DNA of 64,000 nucleotides, taken from assembly GCA_964534365.1 (NCBI GenBank), contig CAZHOI010000001.1:188171-252170 (forward strand), written 5' to 3'. Positions 1 to 9,514 of the stretch are shown in pieces. The notes below the pieces were generated by a model. The model saw only the letters and a program-made list of their open reading frames with translations. It did no database searches and was not told the DNA's origin. Within the stretch, counting starts at the first letter, position 1; every line of letters begins with the position of its first letter. A program made the translations under genes and the position numbers. This DNA is from an uncultured Candidatus Saccharibacteria bacterium (GTDB lineage Bacteria; Patescibacteriota; Minisyncoccia; Phycocordibacterales; SW-6-46-9).

Positions 1-763
1 CTTTTAAGATATGTTGTAATTCTGAACCCATCCAATCAATTCCGGGTACTCCTAAATTCTCTCCCCCATGAACAATGGTCACCTGGGAATGTTTGGTAAC
101 ATTAGGATAGCGACTAGATAGCGGACCGTTAATCATATCTGCTAATTCGGCAGCAACCTCAACCCCCGTTGCACCGCCGCCCACGATAATGAAATGTAGT
201 AGTTTTTTCAGTTCATCAAATTCAGTGGCAAGCTCGGCGTCTTCAAACGATTGAAGGATCCGATTTTTAATTTGTTTGACATCATCCAGGGTTTTAACCG
301 GCAGCGCGAATTCTGCTGCTCCATTCACGCCAAAATAAAATGTTTTGGATCCCAGCGAAGATACAATGTAATCATATTGTCGCACTACATCTTCCTCAAC
401 CGCGTTTGAACTGACGACATCCAGCAATTTCATTTTCACCTCGCCAGCGGTGGCATCAATTGATTGAACGGTGGCCTGAATGTAGTTATCGTAAACTGTA
501 GTGGGCAGCGATCGAACCGGCTGCACCACGTCATCAGGTAATAAATTACCAGTTGCAATTTCATGCGCCATCGTCACTAACCAAAAATAATCAGTTTTGG
601 AGATCATTTCGACATGAAATTTGATATCTTTAGGTAGCTTGCGACGCAGTTTACGCAATTCTAGCGCCGCGTGCATTGCCCCAAATCCAGAACCTAAAAT
701 AGCAATTTTGACCACCTTTTCTTCAGATCTATTATTAAAAGTTAGAGTTTTTATTTCTGACAT
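1..763 (-). CDS. ndh: Type II NADH dehydrogenase (NDH-2) / FAD-dependent pyridine nucleotide-disulfide oxidoreductase; C-terminus cut by window edge
   Basis: Minus-strand translation from ATG at 763 gives MSEIKTLTF...IAILGSGFGAM (GxGxxG FAD fold) and later IIVGGGATGVEVAAELAD (second Rossmann motif); ORF runs off the window start. Confidence 0.8.
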   Translation of the reverse strand, partial: MSEIKTLTFNNRSEEKVVKIAILGSGFGAMHAALELRKLRRKLPKDIKFHVEMISKTDYFWLVTMAHEIATGNLLPDDVVQPVRSLPTTVYDNYIQATVQSIDATAGEVKMKLLDVVSSNAVEEDVVRQYDYIVSSLGSKTFYFGVNGAAEFALPVKTLDDVKQIKNRILQSFEDAELATEFDELKKLLHFIIVGGGATGVEVAAELADMINGPLSSRYPNVTKHSQVTIVHGGENLGVPGIDWMGSELQHILK

Positions 764-853
764 TATTAATTCCAAGTCTAGCAGACAATCATCACGGTGA
801 ATACGTTTTGCCAACTTGAATATATTTTGTTGGCAAGTATGATGATGTAGTTC

Positions 854-891
854 GCTGCCTTAGCTCAGTTGGTAGAGCGCATCCATGGTAA
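854..891 (+). pseudogene. 5' half of a disrupted host tRNA-Thr(GGT) gene (acceptor 5' strand, D-arm, anticodon 5' stem, anticodon loop ATGGTAA)
   Basis: GCTGCCTTAGCTCAGTTGGTAGAGCGCATCCATGGTAA has a canonical tRNA 5' half; it pairs perfectly with the 3' half at 7178-7222. Confidence 0.7.
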
Positions 892-1003
892 TAAGTAGAT
901 AGTACTTAAAAACTAAGGATACGGCTTAAACCAAAGCTATTAGTAAGGTTGCAAGAGAGACATCGGCCTACTCTTGTGTAAAACAGGTCGGCGGATATCA
1001 TTC

Positions 1004-1076
1004 GCTGCTTTAGCTCAGTTGGTAGAGCGCGTCCATGGTAAGGACGAGGTCAACAGTTCAATTCTGTTAAGCAGCT
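1004..1076 (+). tRNA. tRNA-Thr (anticodon GGT), intact element-borne copy
   Basis: Cloverleaf: acceptor GCTGCTT/AAGCAGC, D-arm GCTC-AGTTGGTA-GAGC, anticodon stem CGTCC/GGACG, loop ATGGTAA, T-arm AACAG-TTCAATT-CTGTT; no CCA encoded. Confidence 0.85.
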
Positions 1077-1114
1077 CAACTAAAAATCACAGGCTTGTAG
1101 GTAAACAACAAGCA

Positions 1115-2005
1115 ATGACAAACATACAAACACTGGCACGCCAGTTCTACGATTACTCTACGTTTATACGTGGGTACTCACCAATAACAATAAAGCGTTA
1201 TCGGCAAGTGATTAACTTTTATTGCAAGCACTTTGACATTATAAATATCGAAGACGTAACAGAGAAAAACGTTAAGCAACTATTCGTGTTCGGTAGGTCT
1301 GAACGTAGTTGGTCAGCTAATAGCTACATTATCTATCAAAAGTCACTACTAGTGTTTTTTAGATGGTGTGTAACTAATGGTTACATGGCAACTAACTTTG
1401 CTGAACAAATCGAACTACCAAAATTAAGTAAACGGTTACCACCCAAGCTCACAAAACAGTCTGCTCAACAATTGCTACTTGTTATACAAAATTATCCTTA
1501 TGACTATCCATATCTGCGATATCGTAATCATGCAATCTTCGCTACCTTTCTATTTGCTGGGCTACGTAAGAGCGAGTTATTAAATCTTAAACTTAGTGAC
1601 GTAGACTTAGAAAATATGACGATTATGGTACGCCAAGGCAAGGGCTCTAAAGACCGTATCATTCCAATAAATTACACATTAATGCAGATACTTGAAGAAT
1701 ACTTGGTACATCGTAAGAGATTACGCAAAACATGTCCTGAATTCTTCACTTCGCTTAATAGAAATTTAGGTTTAACTGCTAGTGGACTTAAGTGGGTTGT
1801 TAAAACAGTTAGAAAGGCTACTAAAATACAGTTTACAATCCATAAGTTGCGACATACGTTTGCAACATTAATGTTAGAGGGCGGTTGCGACATCTACTCC
1901 TTGTCCAAAATGATGGGTCATAGCGACATAAAAACAACAACTATATATCTAGCGGCAAGTGCTGAGCACTTGAGGTCGCAGGTTACAAAGCACCCACTAT
2001 CATAA
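1115..2005 (+). CDS. Tyrosine recombinase/integrase (phage integrase family)
   Basis: C-terminal catalytic motifs GLRKSEL (Arg), HKLRHTFAT (H-x-x-R) and GHSDIKTTTIYL (His/Tyr); the ATG at 1115 is downstream of the tRNA, and the ORF-track start at 974 overlaps the tRNA. Confidence 0.85.
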   Translation: MTNIQTLARQFYDYSTFIRGYSPITIKRYRQVINFYCKHFDIINIEDVTEKNVKQLFVFGRSERSWSANSYIIYQKSLLVFFRWCVTNGYMATNFAEQIELPKLSKRLPPKLTKQSAQQLLLVIQNYPYDYPYLRYRNHAIFATFLFAGLRKSELLNLKLSDVDLENMTIMVRQGKGSKDRIIPINYTLMQILEEYLVHRKRLRKTCPEFFTSLNRNLGLTASGLKWVVKTVRKATKIQFTIHKLRHTFATLMLEGGCDIYSLSKMMGHSDIKTTTIYLAASAEHLRSQVTKHPLS

Positions 2006-2049
2006 AAAAGTCACTTATAATAAGATATAATTTCTTAAAGATACTTATT

Positions 2050-3153
2050 ATGAGTAAGATAACTCAGATAAATAAAGAAAACTTCAAGATAGCACGTAAA
2101 AATGCTGGTTTTTCTACTGTCGAAGCATCAAAAAAAGTTACGACATCAAAAAAAAATCTGGTTGAAGAATGGGAAAAAGGTGGCTCTACCCCAACTTGGA
2201 AGCAAGCCGAGACATTGTCGCGTATTTATAACGTTCCATTAGTATTAATGATGTCTAATAAAAGTTTATCTGTACAAAGAGAAATTCCAGACTTCAGAAG
2301 TAATATTAAAGAAATGAGTCTGCCTTTAAAGAGATATATCAACGATTTACTAAAGACTCAAAAGTGGTTAGAGAATAAAATCCAACAAGCAGACGGTTTA
2401 CAAAATTCAATTCAAGGTATTGCTTCAGCAACAGACTCTGTAGATGAATTAAGTAAAATTATTGCTGATAAACTGCAACTAGAGCTCGAATATTTTTACA
2501 GTATTGGCAGTGCGAAGAATAAATTACTTTATTTGATTGAGCGACTCGAAGATAAAGATGTATTTGTCGGCAAAACTTTTGCTCATTATGATATTCCTGT
2601 TAAAGAAATGAGAGGTATGTTTATTTCCAATAAGTATGCACCTATGATTATATTGAATAGAAAAGATGCATACACTGCGCAGTTGTTTACACTCGTCCAT
2701 GAAATCACGCATCTTTTCCGAAATACAGAAGGTGTTTCAAATATAGAACTTGCTAGGAAAGAAACTTTAAAAGAAGAGCGCTTATGTAACGAAGTTGCCG
2801 CCAAGATACTAATGCCAGAAAGTTTTTTGCCGAAAAGTAAGGTTGACTTAAATCAGTTAAAACAGTTAGCAAATAAATTGACCGTCAGTCCAATAGCAAT
2901 GTTTTATAGACTAAAAAACTCAAATAGAATTGCAGGTGAAGTAGATAAGGTGTTGGAAAAAGTAAAGCTTGAGACAAAGCAAAACCTAGAAGCAAAAGAA
3001 GCCAAGGGTTCTACAGGCGGTAACTACTATAACAATACTAAAGACTCTAATGGCACATTGCTAAACAGGTTCGTATCCTCGCTTTACTTTAATCAAGAGA
3101 TTAATTTCGTCGAAGCCTCGAATATTTTAAGACTAGCTGTAAATAAAGTATGA
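2050..3153 (+). CDS. Fusion protein: N-terminal XRE-type HTH DNA-binding domain plus C-terminal ImmA/IrrE (M78, COG2856) zinc metallopeptidase domain
   Basis: N-terminus KENFKIARKNAGFSTVEASKKV is HTH_XRE-like; HEXXH motif in FTLVHEITHLF; sits next to the integrase as ImmR/ImmA do in ICEBs1. Confidence 0.8.
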   Translation: MSKITQINKENFKIARKNAGFSTVEASKKVTTSKKNLVEEWEKGGSTPTWKQAETLSRIYNVPLVLMMSNKSLSVQREIPDFRSNIKEMSLPLKRYINDLLKTQKWLENKIQQADGLQNSIQGIASATDSVDELSKIIADKLQLELEYFYSIGSAKNKLLYLIERLEDKDVFVGKTFAHYDIPVKEMRGMFISNKYAPMIILNRKDAYTAQLFTLVHEITHLFRNTEGVSNIELARKETLKEERLCNEVAAKILMPESFLPKSKVDLNQLKQLANKLTVSPIAMFYRLKNSNRIAGEVDKVLEKVKLETKQNLEAKEAKGSTGGNYYNNTKDSNGTLLNRFVSSLYFNQEINFVEASNILRLAVNKV

Positions 3154-3647
3154 ATACCGAACAAAAAGGTTTTAAGTACGTCATAGACACTAATTACTTA
3201 ATAGGTTTTTCAATATGGCTACCAGTGACTTATAATGAAAATTTTTGGAATAATCTTGAAATTTTGGTAGAGAGTGGAAAAGTACTAATTTTAGACGTAG
3301 TAGCTAATGAGGTTACACGTAAAGGTGACCTAAAAACATGGTGCAAGAAGTTAAAACAAAAAAATCTTTTAACTTCAATTGAAAACACCGACAGAAATAG
3401 AGCTATTGAAATAAACAATCTTTACCCAATGATTGATGAAACCTCAGGAAATTCAGAGGTTGATACATACATAGTTGCTTTTTCTGAAAGGACTTCTCAC
3501 ACATTACTGAGTAGAGAGGCTCCAAGGAAATCAAGTAACGTTCCGTTCAAAATTCCAGATGTATGTAATAAATTAAATATCAACACAATACGGTGGCCTG
3601 AAGATTTTTATAGTATCTTCCCCGAGTTATTTAGTACGTGCAATTAG
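3150..3647 (+). CDS. DUF4411-family PIN-like predicted nuclease
   Basis: YVIDTNYLIGF...NFWNNLE...VLILDVVANEV...DLKTWCKK matches the DUF4411 pattern (IDTN...FW...V.eE...W); ATGA start/stop overlap with the upstream ImmA-fusion gene. Confidence 0.7.
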   Translation: MNTEQKGFKYVIDTNYLIGFSIWLPVTYNENFWNNLEILVESGKVLILDVVANEVTRKGDLKTWCKKLKQKNLLTSIENTDRNRAIEINNLYPMIDETSGNSEVDTYIVAFSERTSHTLLSREAPRKSSNVPFKIPDVCNKLNINTIRWPEDFYSIFPELFSTCN

Positions 3648-4150
3648 ATGCAAGCTTTAGCAATTTCACCATTTTGATAAACAAACAAATTTACTCGATT
3701 CCCACTTGGAATAGCTGACCTGGCACTATCTTTTAAAACTTGGCAATAACTATCAATGGCAACTTGGTTAGCTTGAGACATGACATAAGCTTCCACAATT
3801 ACACCATCATCGCCTTTCTTTACAATCACATTAGACCAACGACCTTCTGCCCAGCCGTCTAAATCTGCTTGTAGCTCATCGATATCAGCTTGAGTTATAG
3901 CAATAGTAGCAGGTGCAGTATTACTTACATTAGGCGGCAAATTAGTAGCTGATTGTGTGAGACTATCATCGCGAGAGTCGTTATTTGAAGCTAAGGTTAT
4001 TGATATAACAATCACTACAAAAATGAACCAAAGAATTGTTTTGATTGGATGTCTAGCAATATACGAGCGCTGACTTGAACCACAATTGGGACACTTAGTC
4101 GCTTTCTTGTTAATCTGCTCCTTACATTCTCTACATTCCTTAGTATCCAT
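3644..4150 (-). CDS. Zinc-ribbon membrane protein (N-terminal CxxC...CxxC, one TM helix, extracytoplasmic domain)
   Basis: MDTKECRECKEQINKKATKCPNCG followed by hydrophobic ILWFIFVVIVISITLA; convergent with the DUF4411 gene and sharing overlapping stop codons; the longer alternative start is at 4207. Confidence 0.5.
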   Translation of the reverse strand: MDTKECRECKEQINKKATKCPNCGSSQRSYIARHPIKTILWFIFVVIVISITLASNNDSRDDSLTQSATNLPPNVSNTAPATIAITQADIDELQADLDGWAEGRWSNVIVKKGDDGVIVEAYVMSQANQVAIDSYCQVLKDSARSAIPSGNRVNLFVYQNGEIAKACI

Positions 4151-4574
4151 AATTAAATTGTTAGTTAGTAACTGGTGTAAGGATTGTAGAAAGCACAAAA
4201 CCCGCAACCAGGTGAGCCGAAGCTCATACGACAGTTTCCCATCGCAACATTAGACACGCCCTGATTACGGGGTTTCTGTGTCTAATGATTTGCAACCATG
4301 CCGACTCTATCGAGGAGGGTTAGGTTGGTAGGTCTATTTTACACCAAAATTTGTCCACTATCCTTGGAACACACAAAAACTAGTTAGCAGGACATTAGCA
4401 GGATAAAGTCAATCTAGAGGACTATTTAAAAACACAAAACAGTAGAAGTAACAGAGAAAGTTTTTAATTTTATGTACCTATTCTTATATGGCAAAAATAA
4501 TAAATAATAGTAAAAAAACGGTAGGAAAACCATAAATACAGTTTTTAACTAAACTAACATGGTACATTTTACAT

Positions 4575-5240
4575 ATGAGTAAGAAACAGCCTTTGAGTAT
4601 TTACTTTGAGAAGCTAGTAGTGAAAAACCAATTTTTAGATGATTTGAAAGAGCTGAACAAATTTCATCAATCAAAACTCAGCCAATTTCAGTCAAATGAG
4701 TTACGGTCAATGTTTGCAGATATTGGTCGAGGTAGAGAATATTGGAGTAAAGTATTTATGATATGTTCTAAGTACGGATTAAATGTTAATCAATTCAAAA
4801 TCATAATATCTAAACTAGCCACTGAAAGTAATTATGATTACAAAGACGATTTAGCGCACATAAGCAACATTAAACTATTAGACTTACAATCTATAAAGAA
4901 AATAATAAAGAAAAAGTTCAATTACAGTAATGAAGCGACATATATTGAAAACGACTATCGGGCGTTTATCGGCCTAAGTAATAATACCACTAAAGCAGAG
5001 CTAATAGATTACATTGAAAAGAATTATCATTCTAAGATTAAACCTTTAATCAGTAATAAAAAAGTAAGCTTTAAAAATCTACAATTAGAAAGAAACAGTG
5101 AGTTAAAGAATTTTGTTTGGAAAAACCAAGATATGCCTCATAAGGAATTGGCTAAAAAAGTCAGTAAAAAGTTCAATAAGATTTGTACTCCTGGATATAT
5201 TTCAAAAATGCTTTCAAGATTAAGAAAACAACGTGATTGA
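4575..5240 (+). CDS. Hypothetical Lys-rich protein with C-terminal HTH-like segment
   Basis: 221-aa ORF; C-terminus HKELAKKVSKKFNKICTPGYISKMLSRLRK resembles an HTH; its stop overlaps the ATG of the downstream recombinase (ATGA). Confidence 0.55.
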   Translation: MSKKQPLSIYFEKLVVKNQFLDDLKELNKFHQSKLSQFQSNELRSMFADIGRGREYWSKVFMICSKYGLNVNQFKIIISKLATESNYDYKDDLAHISNIKLLDLQSIKKIIKKKFNYSNEATYIENDYRAFIGLSNNTTKAELIDYIEKNYHSKIKPLISNKKVSFKNLQLERNSELKNFVWKNQDMPHKELAKKVSKKFNKICTPGYISKMLSRLRKQRD

Positions 5241-6247
5241 AATATGACAAAATAAACTCCAAAAATTGTCAGTATTTCACACAATTTATTTCATATAGTT
5301 GTAGCTACCAACTTATGAAAGACAAAGACCTATATAAATTATTCGATGAATATATAAAAGAATGTACCTATGTAGCTCGCATGCGACCAGCTACCTTAAC
5401 AGGATATAAACAGGTGTTTGATACATTTATGAAGATTATGCCTGAGGTAAAAAAGGTAGATGATTTAATACCTGAGCTAATTACAGAATTCTTTACGCGC
5501 ATGCAGACAAGGACTAGACATTTAAACAACGGTCAAACCCGTTCTGGAATGAAACAATCCTCTGTTGTTACTTATAGAAGCAAGCTACATTCGTTTTTCA
5601 AATGGTTAAACACTAAAAATATCTTAGAAACCAATCCTTTTGACATGTTACCTAAGCCTGAATGGCCAGTGCATGAAGACCAAAGAGCCTTAGATACAAA
5701 AGAAGTTAATCAAATATTGGGTGCGATTTTAAATAATGACAACGACTTTATAATTTGTAGAGATACAGCACTTTTCTATACTTTACTTTACACAGGTATT
5801 AGAAAAAACGAACTAATAAACTTGAGTCTCTCTGATATTGATTTATTAAACCTGAGTTTAAGGGTTAAAGCTGAAACTTCTAAATCCAAAAGAGAACGCA
5901 TAATACCGATTAATAAGGTTTTAGCTCATAAATTAACTACGTATCTAGCAATGCGCAACAAGTTTAGTATTAAATCTGAGAAACTCTGGGTCTCTCATCA
6001 ATCAAAACAAAAACTAACTTCACATGGTCTAAAACATATAGTGGCAAAGTATGTTCATCTATCAGGCGTTAAGTTTCACCTACATCGTTTTCGACATACG
6101 TTTGCGTGTCAGCTGCATTTGGCAGGTGCATCAATTACTGAGATACAGCGTTTATTGGGCCATAAGAAAGTAACAATGACTATGTTGTATCTAAGGTCGA
6201 TAGATACAAAAGATGCTACTTGTCATATTAACAAGCTAACTTATTAG
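5237..6247 (+). CDS. Tyrosine recombinase/integrase, second copy within the element
   Basis: GIRKNEL (Arg), HRFRHTFAC (H-x-x-R), GHKKVTMTMLYL (His/Tyr); alternative start ATG at 5315. Confidence 0.8.
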   Translation: MKYDKINSKNCQYFTQFISYSCSYQLMKDKDLYKLFDEYIKECTYVARMRPATLTGYKQVFDTFMKIMPEVKKVDDLIPELITEFFTRMQTRTRHLNNGQTRSGMKQSSVVTYRSKLHSFFKWLNTKNILETNPFDMLPKPEWPVHEDQRALDTKEVNQILGAILNNDNDFIICRDTALFYTLLYTGIRKNELINLSLSDIDLLNLSLRVKAETSKSKRERIIPINKVLAHKLTTYLAMRNKFSIKSEKLWVSHQSKQKLTSHGLKHIVAKYVHLSGVKFHLHRFRHTFACQLHLAGASITEIQRLLGHKKVTMTMLYLRSIDTKDATCHINKLTY

Positions 6248-6307
6248 CAGTAAAAAGCGTGCTCGCGTTCACTTTTCTACATAAGTCAATTAGTATATAG
6301 CCATAAT

Positions 6308-6988
6308 ATGGTTATGAGTGATATTAAAAAATTACTAATTGAAACAGTTAAAGAGAATGGAATTGATATAGCATCTGATACATTAAAAGTTGTTAGTACT
6401 GTTGCTAACATTTATGGCAAAGTAAAGCGAACTCGAATTAAGATGTTCCTTAATTGCATTATAAGCTTTGTGAATGAGTTAACAGCCGAAGATAAAGAGC
6501 TTTTCATAGAATATGTAAACAGTGATGAAGGTCGGCAATTACTAACTGACTTTATAGATAGCGCATTACGCGTCTCAAATACAATACCGATGAGCGCTTT
6601 AGCATTACTTTTTGCTGACTATAACAGTATGGAATATGGCTTAAATGCCAAATACCATGGAATACGTGTACTTCCGAAGATGAATAATAAGGACGCTATT
6701 TTGTACTCTAAACTTATATCCGGAAGTTCAATATATGAAAATGCTCTAACAGAAATTGATAGTGATGAAACAGTCCCTTATGACACATATATCACATCTC
6801 TTCCCGTAAACGTACAAACTAAGAAATTGTTTATAGATATCAAAAAATTACAAAGCGAAGGCATTATATTAGATGACCCATTCAACGCTAGGATGGCAGG
6901 TGAAGAACTAACAATTGTTTACGGTCTTTCCGATAAAATGTATAGATTAGGGCGGGTGATAAGTATAGCAATTGAGATTAGTAATTAA
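6308..6988 (+). CDS. Hypothetical protein, element cargo
   Basis: 226-aa ORF with coding-like composition and no recognisable motifs. Confidence 0.5.
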   Translation: MVMSDIKKLLIETVKENGIDIASDTLKVVSTVANIYGKVKRTRIKMFLNCIISFVNELTAEDKELFIEYVNSDEGRQLLTDFIDSALRVSNTIPMSALALLFADYNSMEYGLNAKYHGIRVLPKMNNKDAILYSKLISGSSIYENALTEIDSDETVPYDTYITSLPVNVQTKKLFIDIKKLQSEGIILDDPFNARMAGEELTIVYGLSDKMYRLGRVISIAIEISN

Positions 6989-7177
6989 TTATTGATGGCA
7001 ACTTCTGTTATAATGATAGTACTGGGTTACAGCATTAATCAGTAAAAAACTAATAGCCTGTGATTGAGGACATTGGTTGTTAAATAGGTAGTTACATCTG
7101 CTTAGTTAAAACAGCTGATTTGCTCACAAAACCCTTATTTATAGCTCCCTTTTGTCGGAAAGGCCTATGTCCACTTA

Positions 7178-7222
7178 ATGGTAAGGATGAGGTCGACAGT
7201 TCAATTCTGTCAGGCAGCTCCA
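7178..7222 (+). pseudogene. 3' half of the disrupted host tRNA-Thr(GGT), from the anticodon loop through CCA
   Basis: ATGGTAA-GGATG-AGGTC-GACAG-TTCAATT-CTGTC-AGGCAGC-T-CCA; GGATG pairs CATCC and AGGCAGC pairs GCTGCCT of the 854-891 half; the ORF 7120-7317 over this region is spurious. Confidence 0.7.
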
Positions 7223-7276
7223 CTAAATTACACCACAAATATTTAAACCCGTTGGGTGACTGTCACCCTTGTCTCA

Positions 7277-9514
7277 TTAATCGAAAAAATCGTCGTCGGA
7301 AATATCAGATTCGCTAGCTTCAGTTGATAGATCACTGCCGTCATCAGTGCGGATATAGACCACTGATGGTCCGCAGCTGGTTGCTTCAGTACCAACAGCA
7401 GTTTGAGTTACAACAGCACTGTAATTGGAATCAATACAACCAAAGAAATCTGGATTAGGTAGTGGTAATTGCACTAGGAATTCGCTGTTAGCTGCATTAC
7501 ATGTTGCCTGAACTCCTGTATTAGTACTGACAAAATCACGCAATTCTTGCACCGCATCACTGGCACAAAAATTGTTGAAACTACCCTCATTATCGCGATA
7601 AACCGATGCATCACTGCCTAACAAACGCAGACGATCCATAATTACCACCTCTTCACCAGGACCTAATTGTTGCAAAATGGAAATAATTTCATCTGATGGA
7701 ACCACGTTTGGTGGAGCAGTTATGGCTGATCCTGTGTAATCGTAATCAAACGAAATATTGATATTGCTGGCTCCAGATTGGTGAATTAATTGTGCGTCAA
7801 CCTCTTGAATCAGTCGTGTATTTCGGTCGATTTGCGCCTGTCCTTCAACTGATAACAAACCACTATAATCAAACATATCATTAAAGAAAGCGGTGTTTTG
7901 CGGGATGCGCGAGTTAAAACTATCAACATCAAAACTAAAATCAAACATATCCACTGCACCACTGGCACCATCTATGGTATTTTTATATTCAAATTGTAAA
8001 ACATCACTGTTATAAAGGTCGGTTAAAGAACTGGATACAGCGTTTACCACATCAGATAAATTAGTAGGGGGATTTCCTGACAATAGCGACAGCACTGACG
8101 ACACGTCACCGTCGCCCTTGATTTCGAACCATTCATTGGGGACCTGATCCAGTGGACTTACGTTTGGTAGTTCCCTGAATTTGGCAAATGACCGGCTGCC
8201 ATCATAGGCAAAGTCCAGCGTAATCTCGCCTAAACTAGCACTAAACCCATTTTTATTTGATTGAGTGTTTACCAAACCCCTTACATTGATTGGCAATGTA
8301 GTAGAATTGGCAACCGCTGCAACGGCCGGCGGGGTGTCGGCAGTAGGATTATTAATATTAAGCGGCAATTCACCTGAGGCAGCATATGAAACATATTGCA
8401 CCGTATCAAATGCACTTATGATTTGGTCCGGGGAATAATCAGGGGTAGTACCAATTAATCGCGGTAGAAAAGTTGCGGCGGCAGCGGCGAGGGCAACCAG
8501 AAGCAATATAGCAATCACCAGAATAGTTATTTTTTTATTTTTTGATTTATCGGTCGATTGTGATTGAAGTTTAGCTTTAGGATTGGCATTTAAAGACTGA
8601 CGGGGCAATCTAGCAGATTGTTTCATCGTATTACCTTTAACCGATGGTCGGTAAACTAAACCTGAGTTTTCGGTTTGAGTCGGTTTATTTTGCTCAGGTT
8701 GAATACGCATTTGGTCATTTGATTCACGACTATCAGACAAAGCTCGCTTCTTATCCGCAGAGGCCGCAGAGACCAATTTATTTGGTGATTGACCAGGCTC
8801 TTCCCCTTTGCCTAACGAACTATTGTCATCAGTCGATTTATTTAACTGCCAATCAGCTGCGCGGCGATATTTGATATTACTGGCTGATTTAGGTTCAGCA
8901 GTATTAGGTGATCCTAATACATCAATAGGAGTTGCGGCAGCAGAACGCTGGACAGGACTCGTATTAAATTGCTCTGGCTGTTTTCCCTGCTCTGTTGCGG
9001 GGGCTTGATTGGTTCGATTAGTTTGGGACTTATTATCTCTGTTTTGATTTAATCCTTCTACCCTAGTTACTGAATCAGTATTATTGCCAGTATCATTTAG
9101 AGTAATATTATCCCCTTGATTAATAGTAGATTGTTGTAGCTTTTGCCTGAGTTGTTGCAGATTTTCAGCTGCATTGGATCCAGTACTTGATTGGACCCCG
9201 GACTGTGTCGCATTACTTTTATCATTGCTATCGGGACCACTAGTGTCGGCGGTCGAGTCATCAGCAGATTTTTTATTCCCTGTAGCCGAATTATCTGAAT
9301 TATCACCAACTTCAGCTGAACCAGTTCTGGATTGATCAGAGGCCAGATTATCTGAGGTGTCATTTTCGCTAGCAACGGTATCAACCACTCCAAACGCTTC
9401 ATTAATATCATCACCGGTCCAACCGGCTTGCAGCAGGGTCATTTTTATCGAATTTTTATCCACTCCGCGGTTTTTTTGATATTCAACGTAGCGCAATAAT
9501 TCTTCGGTAACCAT
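7277..9514 (-). CDS. Membrane-anchored protein: small cytoplasmic N-domain, low-complexity S/T/N/Q linker, one TM helix, large extracytoplasmic domain
   Basis: 745-aa ORF; TM segment ITILVIAILLLVALAAAAATFLP; acidic C-terminus. Confidence 0.6.
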   Translation of the reverse strand: MVTEELLRYVEYQKNRGVDKNSIKMTLLQAGWTGDDINEAFGVVDTVASENDTSDNLASDQSRTGSAEVGDNSDNSATGNKKSADDSTADTSGPDSNDKSNATQSGVQSSTGSNAAENLQQLRQKLQQSTINQGDNITLNDTGNNTDSVTRVEGLNQNRDNKSQTNRTNQAPATEQGKQPEQFNTSPVQRSAAATPIDVLGSPNTAEPKSASNIKYRRAADWQLNKSTDDNSSLGKGEEPGQSPNKLVSAASADKKRALSDSRESNDQMRIQPEQNKPTQTENSGLVYRPSVKGNTMKQSARLPRQSLNANPKAKLQSQSTDKSKNKKITILVIAILLLVALAAAAATFLPRLIGTTPDYSPDQIISAFDTVQYVSYAASGELPLNINNPTADTPPAVAAVANSTTLPINVRGLVNTQSNKNGFSASLGEITLDFAYDGSRSFAKFRELPNVSPLDQVPNEWFEIKGDGDVSSVLSLLSGNPPTNLSDVVNAVSSSLTDLYNSDVLQFEYKNTIDGASGAVDMFDFSFDVDSFNSRIPQNTAFFNDMFDYSGLLSVEGQAQIDRNTRLIQEVDAQLIHQSGASNINISFDYDYTGSAITAPPNVVPSDEIISILQQLGPGEEVVIMDRLRLLGSDASVYRDNEGSFNNFCASDAVQELRDFVSTNTGVQATCNAANSEFLVQLPLPNPDFFGCIDSNYSAVVTQTAVGTEATSCGPSVVYIRTDDGSDLSTEASESDISDDDFFD

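Follow-up and report, generated by a model that had tools for sequence, protein, structure and literature searches.

Here we describe a two-gene cassette in a 64,000-nucleotide (nt) stretch of DNA from an uncultured Candidatus Saccharibacteria bacterium (GenBank assembly GCA_964534365.1, contig CAZHOI010000001.1, positions 188,171 to 252,170 of the forward strand; this whole stretch is hereafter the window, and positions are given in its own numbering). The two open reading frames (ORFs) of the cassette, ORF1 and ORF2, probably constitute a toxin–antitoxin (TA) or abortive-infection module of the VapBC52 type, with a protease-containing antitoxin encoded first and a PIN-fold nuclease second. 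Both proteins align with the corresponding members of the Mycobacterium tuberculosis pair Rv2515c/Rv2514c (VapB52/VapC52), and these alignments, together with the experiments published on that pair, support the assignment. The earlier note on this DNA, made from the sequence without database searches, had proposed a single-chain sensor, composed of a helix-turn-helix (HTH) domain and a protease, that controls a PIN nuclease in TA or abortive infection; such an arrangement has been shown for the homologous Rv2515c/Rv2514c. The parts of the module are as follows (aa, amino acids; AF2, AlphaFold 2).

2050–3153, + strand: ORF1, VapB52-like antitoxin, 367 aa (match to 9vzy_A, PADLOC RmrA profiles, phrog_2439, AF2 model, Foldseek).
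2074–2253, + strand: N-terminal XRE-type HTH domain of ORF1, aa 9–68, five helices (AF2 model, Foldseek, sub-threshold Pfam match).
2290–2298, + strand: D81-F82-R83 linker motif of ORF1, aligned with the FR motif (F75-R76) of VapB52.
2527–2919, + strand: M78/ImmA-IrrE zinc-peptidase domain of ORF1 (PF06114), with HEITH, E243, Ser230 and C246.
3150–3153, + strand: ATGA stop/start overlap, in which the ATG of ORF2 (3150–3152) lies over the TGA of ORF1 (3151–3153).
3150–3647, + strand: ORF2, DUF4411 PIN-fold nuclease, predicted VapC52-like toxin, 165 aa (Pfam PF14367, 9vzy_D/9vzz_A, AF2 model, Foldseek).
3186–3188, 3309–3311, 3462–3464 and 3516–3518, + strand: conserved acidic residues D13, E54, D105 and E123 of ORF2.

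Both ORFs start with ATG, and the ATGA overlap is a layout of the translational-coupling type. In the earlier note the first gene was read as a 367-aa protein with an XRE HTH N-terminus and an HEITH-bearing M78 domain, its stop overlapping the ATG of a 165-aa DUF4411-like protein, and the module as a neighbour of an integrase. All of this stands: the M78 domain is recovered by Pfam, alignment and the AlphaFold model, the overlap is the ATGA at 3150–3153, the IDTNYLI...FW string is present in ORF2, and a tyrosine recombinase gene ends 44 nt upstream of ORF1. The profile searches that the note had suggested as a check support both the M78 and the DUF4411 assignments (Pfam).

PDB entry 9VZY alone holds relatives of both window proteins. 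In PDB sequence searches ORF1 matched its chain A, labelled 'HTH cro/C1-type domain-containing protein' (aa 12–344 aligned, E = 7.3e-14), and ORF2 matched 9vzy_D and 9vzz_A, labelled 'DUF4411 family protein' (aa 10–144, E = 3.8e-7). Entries 9VZY and 9VZZ are M. tuberculosis VapB52/VapC52 (Singh et al., NAR 2026, PMC13273310). In this system one antitoxin binds two toxins, and the XRE-like N-terminal domain of VapB52 is the main toxin-binding domain, essential for binding, whereas its 59-aa C-terminal domain covers the toxin active site (PMC13273310). The central peptidase of VapB52 is an IrrE/CapP-like M78 enzyme with zinc on H216, H220 and E245, capped by C229 as a 'cysteine switch'; self-cleavage is induced by single-stranded DNA (ssDNA), depends on HEXXH and removes the N-terminal domain, the probable site being the linker F75-R76 (PMC13273310). 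VapC52 cuts the anticodon or variable loops of tRNAs, those of phage D29 included, and VapBC52 gives phage resistance in M. smegmatis (PMC13273310). Independently of the structural work, Rv2514c has been found toxic and Rv2515c to rescue from it (PMC6504116).

The window module has a number of features in common with VapBC52. The antitoxin gene precedes the toxin gene, an order also found in Rv2515c/Rv2514c, and the window ORFs overlap. ORF1 shares with VapB52 the XRE-like N-terminal domain, the D-F-R linker, the IrrE/CapP-like M78 domain with HEXXH and Glu, and a conserved GG motif; H217, E218, H221 and E243 of the window protein stand opposite H216, E217, H220 and E245 of VapB52 (VapB52 residues are given in the numbering of the paper, that of the PDB chain being one higher). 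ORF2, like VapC52, is a DUF4411 PIN toxin by homology, with acidic residues in common. The PDB library used with Foldseek (to April 2026) did not return 9VZY, and the link to VapBC52 therefore comes from sequence comparison only.

ORF1 is composed of the N-terminal XRE-type HTH and the M78/IrrE zinc peptidase, within which lies an IrrE-type helical/HTH subdomain, and it ends in a C-terminal helical tail that is short and conserved; the AF2 model of ORF1 has a predicted local distance difference test (pLDDT) score of 91.2 and a predicted template modelling (pTM) score of 0.89. The HTH domain does not reach its Pfam cut-off (HTH_3, 14 bits vs 23, E = 0.051). Other sequence support for it comes from the HTH of MBF1 (2mez, E = 0.0022), from PADLOC HTH_VI (5.8e-6) and from the full-length VapB52 alignment. 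In the AF2 model the N-terminal helices span aa 9–19, 23–30, 37–43, 50–60 and 64–68, and in Foldseek this part superposes on the DNA-binding domains of ImmR (7t8i; TM 0.80, root-mean-square deviation 1.6 Å) and of P22 c2 (3jxb; TM 0.80). As modelled, the domain is thus confirmed as an XRE-type HTH despite its sub-threshold Pfam score. The peptidase is recognised by Pfam Peptidase_M78 (PF06114; aa 185–289, 42.7 bits vs a cut-off of 22, E = 5.7e-11), and with the central part of the model Foldseek retrieved IrrE (3dti), PprI with ssDNA (8sln) and CapP (7t5t). The entire chain matches phrog_2439 over its full length (1.1e-37).

To follow the conservation of these features we used relatives of the module from two sources, namely, the best 80 of at least 582 loci from a pattern scan, with one genome per species, and 80 loci on viral contigs. 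Residues H217, E218 and H221 of the HEITH motif (aa 217–221, nt 2698–2712) are kept in all 160 relatives, and E243 (nt 2776–2778), the third zinc ligand by alignment, in 159. C246 (nt 2785–2787), three residues past this Glu, is kept in 158/160 and is also present in VapB52. By contrast with VapB52 and CapP, where position 230 (nt 2737–2739) corresponds to the zinc-capping cysteine, this site is Ser in 145 of the 160 relatives and never Cys. In the linker, D81 and R83 are invariant at all 80 genome loci; at the viral loci D81 is kept in 72/80 and R83 in 79/80, which brings R83 to 159/160 overall. Among 37 aligned ORF1 homologues the invariant set includes D81, R83, H217, E218, H221, S230, E243 and C246. 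The C-terminal tail comprises the 23 residues past aa 344, where the VapB52 alignment stops, and contains the conserved A356 and L360.

For ORF2, Pfam DUF4411 (PF14367) was matched well above its cut-off (66.5 bits vs 23.5, E = 3.2e-18, aa 10–148). With the AlphaFold model (pLDDT 90.6, pTM 0.86) as query, nearly all of the top Foldseek matches were PIN proteins of the VapC/FitB type, at a probability of 1.0. D13, N15, E54, S102, D105, E123 and an IPxVC motif (KIPDVC in the window) are invariant in 44 sequences; a profile search with the DUF4411 alignment reached 2280 proteins at E ≤ 1e-5. Other searches gave little. PADLOC has no RmrT toxin profile matching ORF2, the sole match being GajB at chance level (E = 0.02), and no specific NCBIfam family was found for ORF1 or ORF2. 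With tblastn, ORF2 had two weak unannotated matches in annotated phages and none in plasmids, a result that is uninformative at this divergence.

By homology with VapBC52, the module most likely works in the following way. ORF2 would be a Mg2+-dependent PIN endoribonuclease, the likely targets of which are tRNA loops, and ORF1 would combine antitoxin and sensor in a single chain. The XRE-like N-terminal domain and the C-terminal tail would hold the toxin, probably with one antitoxin per toxin dimer. The IrrE/CapP-like M78 peptidase would stay idle until it receives a signal, which in characterised homologues is ssDNA arising from damage or phage replication. Once activated, the peptidase would cut its own chain at the D-F-R linker (aa 81–83), the toxin-binding N-terminal domain would be lost, and the nuclease would be freed to stop translation and growth.

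A DUF4411 ORF lies directly downstream of the ORF1 homologue and on the same strand at 79/80 genome loci and at 80/80 viral-contig loci (159/160 altogether); at the remaining genome locus only 533 nt of downstream DNA are available. By comparison, a tyrosine recombinase was found within ~6 kb at one of the 80 genome loci and six of the 80 viral ones (7/160), and within 1.5 kb at a single locus. This recombinase count is a lower bound, as the phmmer queries were the two integrases of the window only and divergent integrases could escape. A DUF4411 gene also directly follows each of the seven ORF1 homologues (27–44% identical) that we examined on their contigs, those named being from the candidate phyla radiation (CPR) and Bacteroidia. 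The contexts of these seven are unrelated, including trehalose genes, a Y1 transposase, a serine-recombinase island, AAA_13/ResIII genes and housekeeping genes. The closest locus of the genome scan, which covered GTDB species representatives, is 43% identical. Stop and start codons overlap in 54 of the 72 relative pairs that could be evaluated, with the same 4-nt overlap in 39 and ATGA in 34. Thus, the pairing of ORF1 with DUF4411 is near-obligate, and integrase adjacency is a property of the carrier element rather than of the ORF1 family. Taken together, the two frequencies, 159/160 for DUF4411 and 7/160 for a recombinase, indicate an autonomous, widely spread TA/defence cassette and not an int/xis switch.

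The relatives also bear on the question of whether the window pair could be an inactive relic, with both ORFs decaying. Decay does occur in the family: in one relative, a metagenome-assembled genome (MAG) of Candidatus Nomurabacteria (L007:6124-6522), DUF4411 is shortened to 132 aa and has lost the KIPDVC region next to a full-length antitoxin, and may represent a decaying toxin. In the window, however, both ORFs are full length, their starts agree with those of the homologues and all catalytic and motif residues are intact. The pair moreover recurs in identical copies in at least six metagenome assemblies (JGI and SRA), and contigs of sufficient length all show it in the same island context. 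We therefore regard a relic as extremely unlikely.

Two features lie upstream of the two genes.

1115–2005, + strand: tyrosine recombinase (integrase 1), part of the carrier context (Pfam Phage_integrase, 2.7e-31; NCBIfam Xer-like matches; phrog_1, 1.3e-52).
2006–2049, + strand: 44-nt spacer between the integrase gene and ORF1, candidate promoter/operator, with two TATAAT and one palindrome.

A longer, TTG-initiated version of the integrase ORF, listed from position 974, is not credible because it runs across a tRNA gene. The earlier note had pointed to a TATAAT at about 2021, and the spacer indeed contains this hexamer at 2016–2021 and again at 2026–2031, the second one 18 nt ahead of the ORF1 ATG. 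An 11-nt palindrome, CTTATAATAAG, occupies 2014–2024. A search for palindromes upstream of ORF1 in the relatives revealed no common operator, except for a 15-nt match with a single relative (L019), which has AATAAGATATAATTT in common with the window spacer. An exact TATAAT occurs within 45 nt of the ORF1 start in 10 of the 20 closest relatives, compared with 2.7% of windows drawn at random from these loci, and in seven of the 10 the hexamer ends 6–9 nt before the start codon, a spacing that suggests leaderless or near-leaderless transcripts. This pattern is seen in the closest, CPR-type relatives (L017–L037) but not in more distant or viral-contig ones. A candidate promoter belonging to the module itself is plausible on these sequence grounds, and transcription may also read through from int.

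The location of the module raises the possibility, included in the earlier note, of an element immunity/induction switch of the ImmR/ImmA type. Here ORF1 would be a fused repressor–antirepressor that keeps the int/excision genes off and cleaves itself upon DNA damage so as to induce excision, and DUF4411 would be an accessory. Consistent with such a switch, ORF1 lies 44 nt 3′ of a same-strand integrase within a tRNA-integrated element, its N-terminal domain superposes on ImmR, its peptidase belongs to the ImmA/IrrE family, and the spacer contains an AT-rich palindrome and TATAAT boxes. However, it is DUF4411 and not a recombinase that accompanies the ORF1 subfamily, no tyrosine recombinase being recognised with the two window integrases as queries at 153/160 loci, and the seven homologues examined sit in unrelated contexts. 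In addition, no separate ImmR-like gene, other HTH protein or xis was found among the ORFs of the element, and in VapB52 the N-terminal domain binds the toxin. We consider the switch very unlikely; it is the weakest of the three alternatives in the earlier note, the others being an addiction and an abortive-infection module.

The module is cargo of an integrative element that splits a host tRNA gene.

892–7184, no strand assigned: 6.3-kb integrative element carrying the module, interrupting a host tRNA-Thr(GGT) gene at its anticodon loop.
853–891 and 7178–7221: 5′ and 3′ halves of the host tRNA-Thr, the first ending and the second starting with ATGGTAA (anticodon loop).

Of the 7-nt core ATGGTAA there are two copies, at 885–891 and at 7178–7184. 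The stems of the two host halves pair mutually (acceptor GCTGCCT/AGGCAGC, anticodon CATCC/GGATG), and joining 800–891 to 7185–7300 yields a tRNA-Thr(GGT) that is valid according to ARAGORN. Furthermore, a relative on a metagenome contig (L097) has an intact tRNA-Thr gene holding the 51-nt joined search pattern, next to a Pyr_redox_2/NADH-dehydrogenase-type orthologue (54% identical) of the gene upstream in the window. GC content is 29–38% inside the element and 40–46% outside. The element has its own complete tRNA-Thr(GGT) at 1004–1077, with its own compensated pairs (GCTGCTT/AAGCAGC, CGTCC/GGACG); the host halves do not match its stems in the way that they match each other. The pairing of the halves, the valid joined tRNA, the intact site in L097 and the GC contrast together indicate that the 6.3-kb element splits the host tRNA and brings a replacement. 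It does not regenerate the tRNA from a 3′-end copy in attP; both halves stay fragments and the element supplies its own tRNA. We favour a single insertion over an origin of the tRNA fragments in two events, because the halves pair by Watson–Crick compensations and together equal the intact tRNA of L097, and because the deduced attP junction, ACTTA|ATGGTAA|TAAGT, is symmetric. An excised circular junction of the element was not found in viral contigs.

Apart from the module and the tRNA, the element contains two tyrosine recombinases, a zinc-ribbon membrane protein, two proteins with no family match and a LOOT RNA. The second recombinase (5237–6247) is Xer-like and different from integrase 1, with 336 aa, or 310 aa in the gene calls of the contig; as the listed TTG-start ORF it overlaps by 4 nt the end of a 221-aa ORF (4575–5240) that has no family match. 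The LOOT RNA (RF03000; 4213–4326, − strand; Rfam 64.6 bits vs a gathering score of 46.4) lies directly upstream of the zinc-ribbon/transmembrane ORF (3644–4207, − strand), and a terminator-like hairpin is found at its 3′ end (4213–4200, − strand). Just outside the element there is a 745-aa ORF (7277–9514, − strand) with a low-complexity N-terminal half rich in Ser, Asn, Gln and Asp and one predicted membrane span; it has no Pfam match in the precomputed annotation of the contig.

On such an element, the cassette would most likely serve as anti-phage cargo, as a stabiliser of the element, or as both. Alternatively, it might be a plain post-segregational addiction module with no role other than stabilising the 6.3-kb element, in which M78 merely makes the antitoxin labile and neither phage nor DNA is sensed. 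TA pairs are classic stabilisers, the carrier is a small mobile element with a GC content lower than that of its flanks, and ORF1 lacks the cysteine switch that in VapB52/CapP is tied to ssDNA gating, all of which would fit this possibility. Against it, the IrrE/CapP-like sensor module is conserved over its full length, internal helical subdomain included, most relatives are found either on viral contigs or in chromosomes where markers of mobile elements are not obvious, and the homologue gives phage resistance. We regard a plain addiction module as quite improbable; it assumes the same molecular mechanism as the VapBC52-type explanation and another biological role.

Several observations weigh against a VapBC52-type module. 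Identity to VapB52/VapC52 is low, and the matches are at the profile level only. VapB52 has 415 aa compared with 367 in ORF1, and opposite its 59-aa toxin-occluding C-terminal domain ORF1 has only the tail of about 23 residues. Ser230 of the window stands opposite C229 (TEGVSN vs TEGLCD), so that the cysteine switch is missing and gating, possibly also the trigger, may differ. The window pair is known here from its sequence; a further difference from VapBC52 is its location on a tRNA-integrated element of an uncultured organism. PADLOC yields RmrA-like matches for the antitoxin and no toxin model for ORF2, and hence no curated defence system. Finally, a generic scan for sigma-70 promoters (−35/−10) and terminators found no promoter in 2006–2049 and no excess over shuffled sequences, and there is no evident Shine–Dalgarno sequence before ORF1 or ORF2.

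Since most members of the family, the window protein included, have Ser at the site of the capping cysteine, one may conceive of a variant in which the Ser-type protease is gated differently or answers to a trigger other than ssDNA, such as a phage-encoded protein, or a redox/zinc signal received through the near-invariant Cys246. The cassette might also be bound up with the biology of the element that carries it, for example, with a tRNA-cutting toxin that spares the tRNA variant of the element. We consider this variant rather unlikely.

The combination of HTH-M78 and DUF4411 is not new: it was predicted in 2009 and 2017 and has been characterised structurally and functionally in VapBC52. Makarova et al. 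(2009, PMC2701414) described fused COG2856-Xre proteins, Rv2515c among them by name, whose operons also encode PIN or RelE toxins, and proposed a three-component TA system. Matelska et al. (2017, PMC5499597) noted DUF4411.1 genes downstream of fused DUF955 (COG2856, ImmA)-HTH genes. The one mildly new point is that the window protein, like nearly all of the relatives sampled, has a conserved serine where the switch cysteine would be. Judging from these sequences, the 'cysteine switch' is a trait of one characterised member and not of the family as sampled here, which raises for mechanistic work the question of how the Ser-type majority is activated. Otherwise knowledge of this kind of system is unchanged, and the value of the present analysis lies mainly in annotation, as it extends the VapBC52-type system to an uncultured lineage; the closest relatives of the module are Patescibacteria/CPR MAGs.

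Other known systems share individual parts with the window module. In RosmerTA the antitoxin likewise combines HTH with an M78/ImmA protease, and 13 PADLOC RmrA profiles match ORF1 (best E = 5.7e-16, aa 2–292). Ernits et al. (2023, PMC10440598) linked the NetFlax D25 ImmA/Rosmer antitoxin node to PIN-like toxins. However, RmrT-D5, a Rosmer toxin from Gordonia phage Kita, acts by membrane depolarisation (PMC10440598), whereas ORF2 has a PIN fold and matches no RmrT profile. ImmR/ImmA of ICEBs1 and the Xre/COG2856 switches of prophages have in common with ORF1 the M78 family, the ImmR-like XRE HTH fold and an integrase neighbour. In ICEBs1 a separate repressor and protease act on int/xis promoters, whereas the window has one chain coupled to a nuclease gene, and the ORF1 family shows no general linkage to integrases similar to the two of the window. 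CapH/CapP of the cyclic oligonucleotide-based antiphage signalling system (CBASS) and IrrE(PprI)/DdrO of Deinococcus share with ORF1 the fold of M78 plus helical subdomain (7t5t, 3dti, 8sln), and PADLOC capP matches ORF1 at 3.3e-12. CapP and IrrE(PprI) are proteases activated by ssDNA or stress that cleave a separate repressor, CapH or DdrO, to induce transcription. By homology, the substrate of ORF1 would instead be its own linker and the output toxin release, and no CapH/DdrO-like repressor and no CBASS or DNA-repair operon was found within positions 1–9000 of the window. As for classical VapBC, the toxin has the same PIN fold, VapC/FitB proteins being the best structural matches of ORF2, and antitoxin and toxin are likewise encoded in a bicistronic operon. 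Classical antitoxins, however, are small RHH/AbrB/Phd proteins of 8–13 kDa degraded by host proteases, whereas the antitoxin of the window is a 367-aa enzyme.

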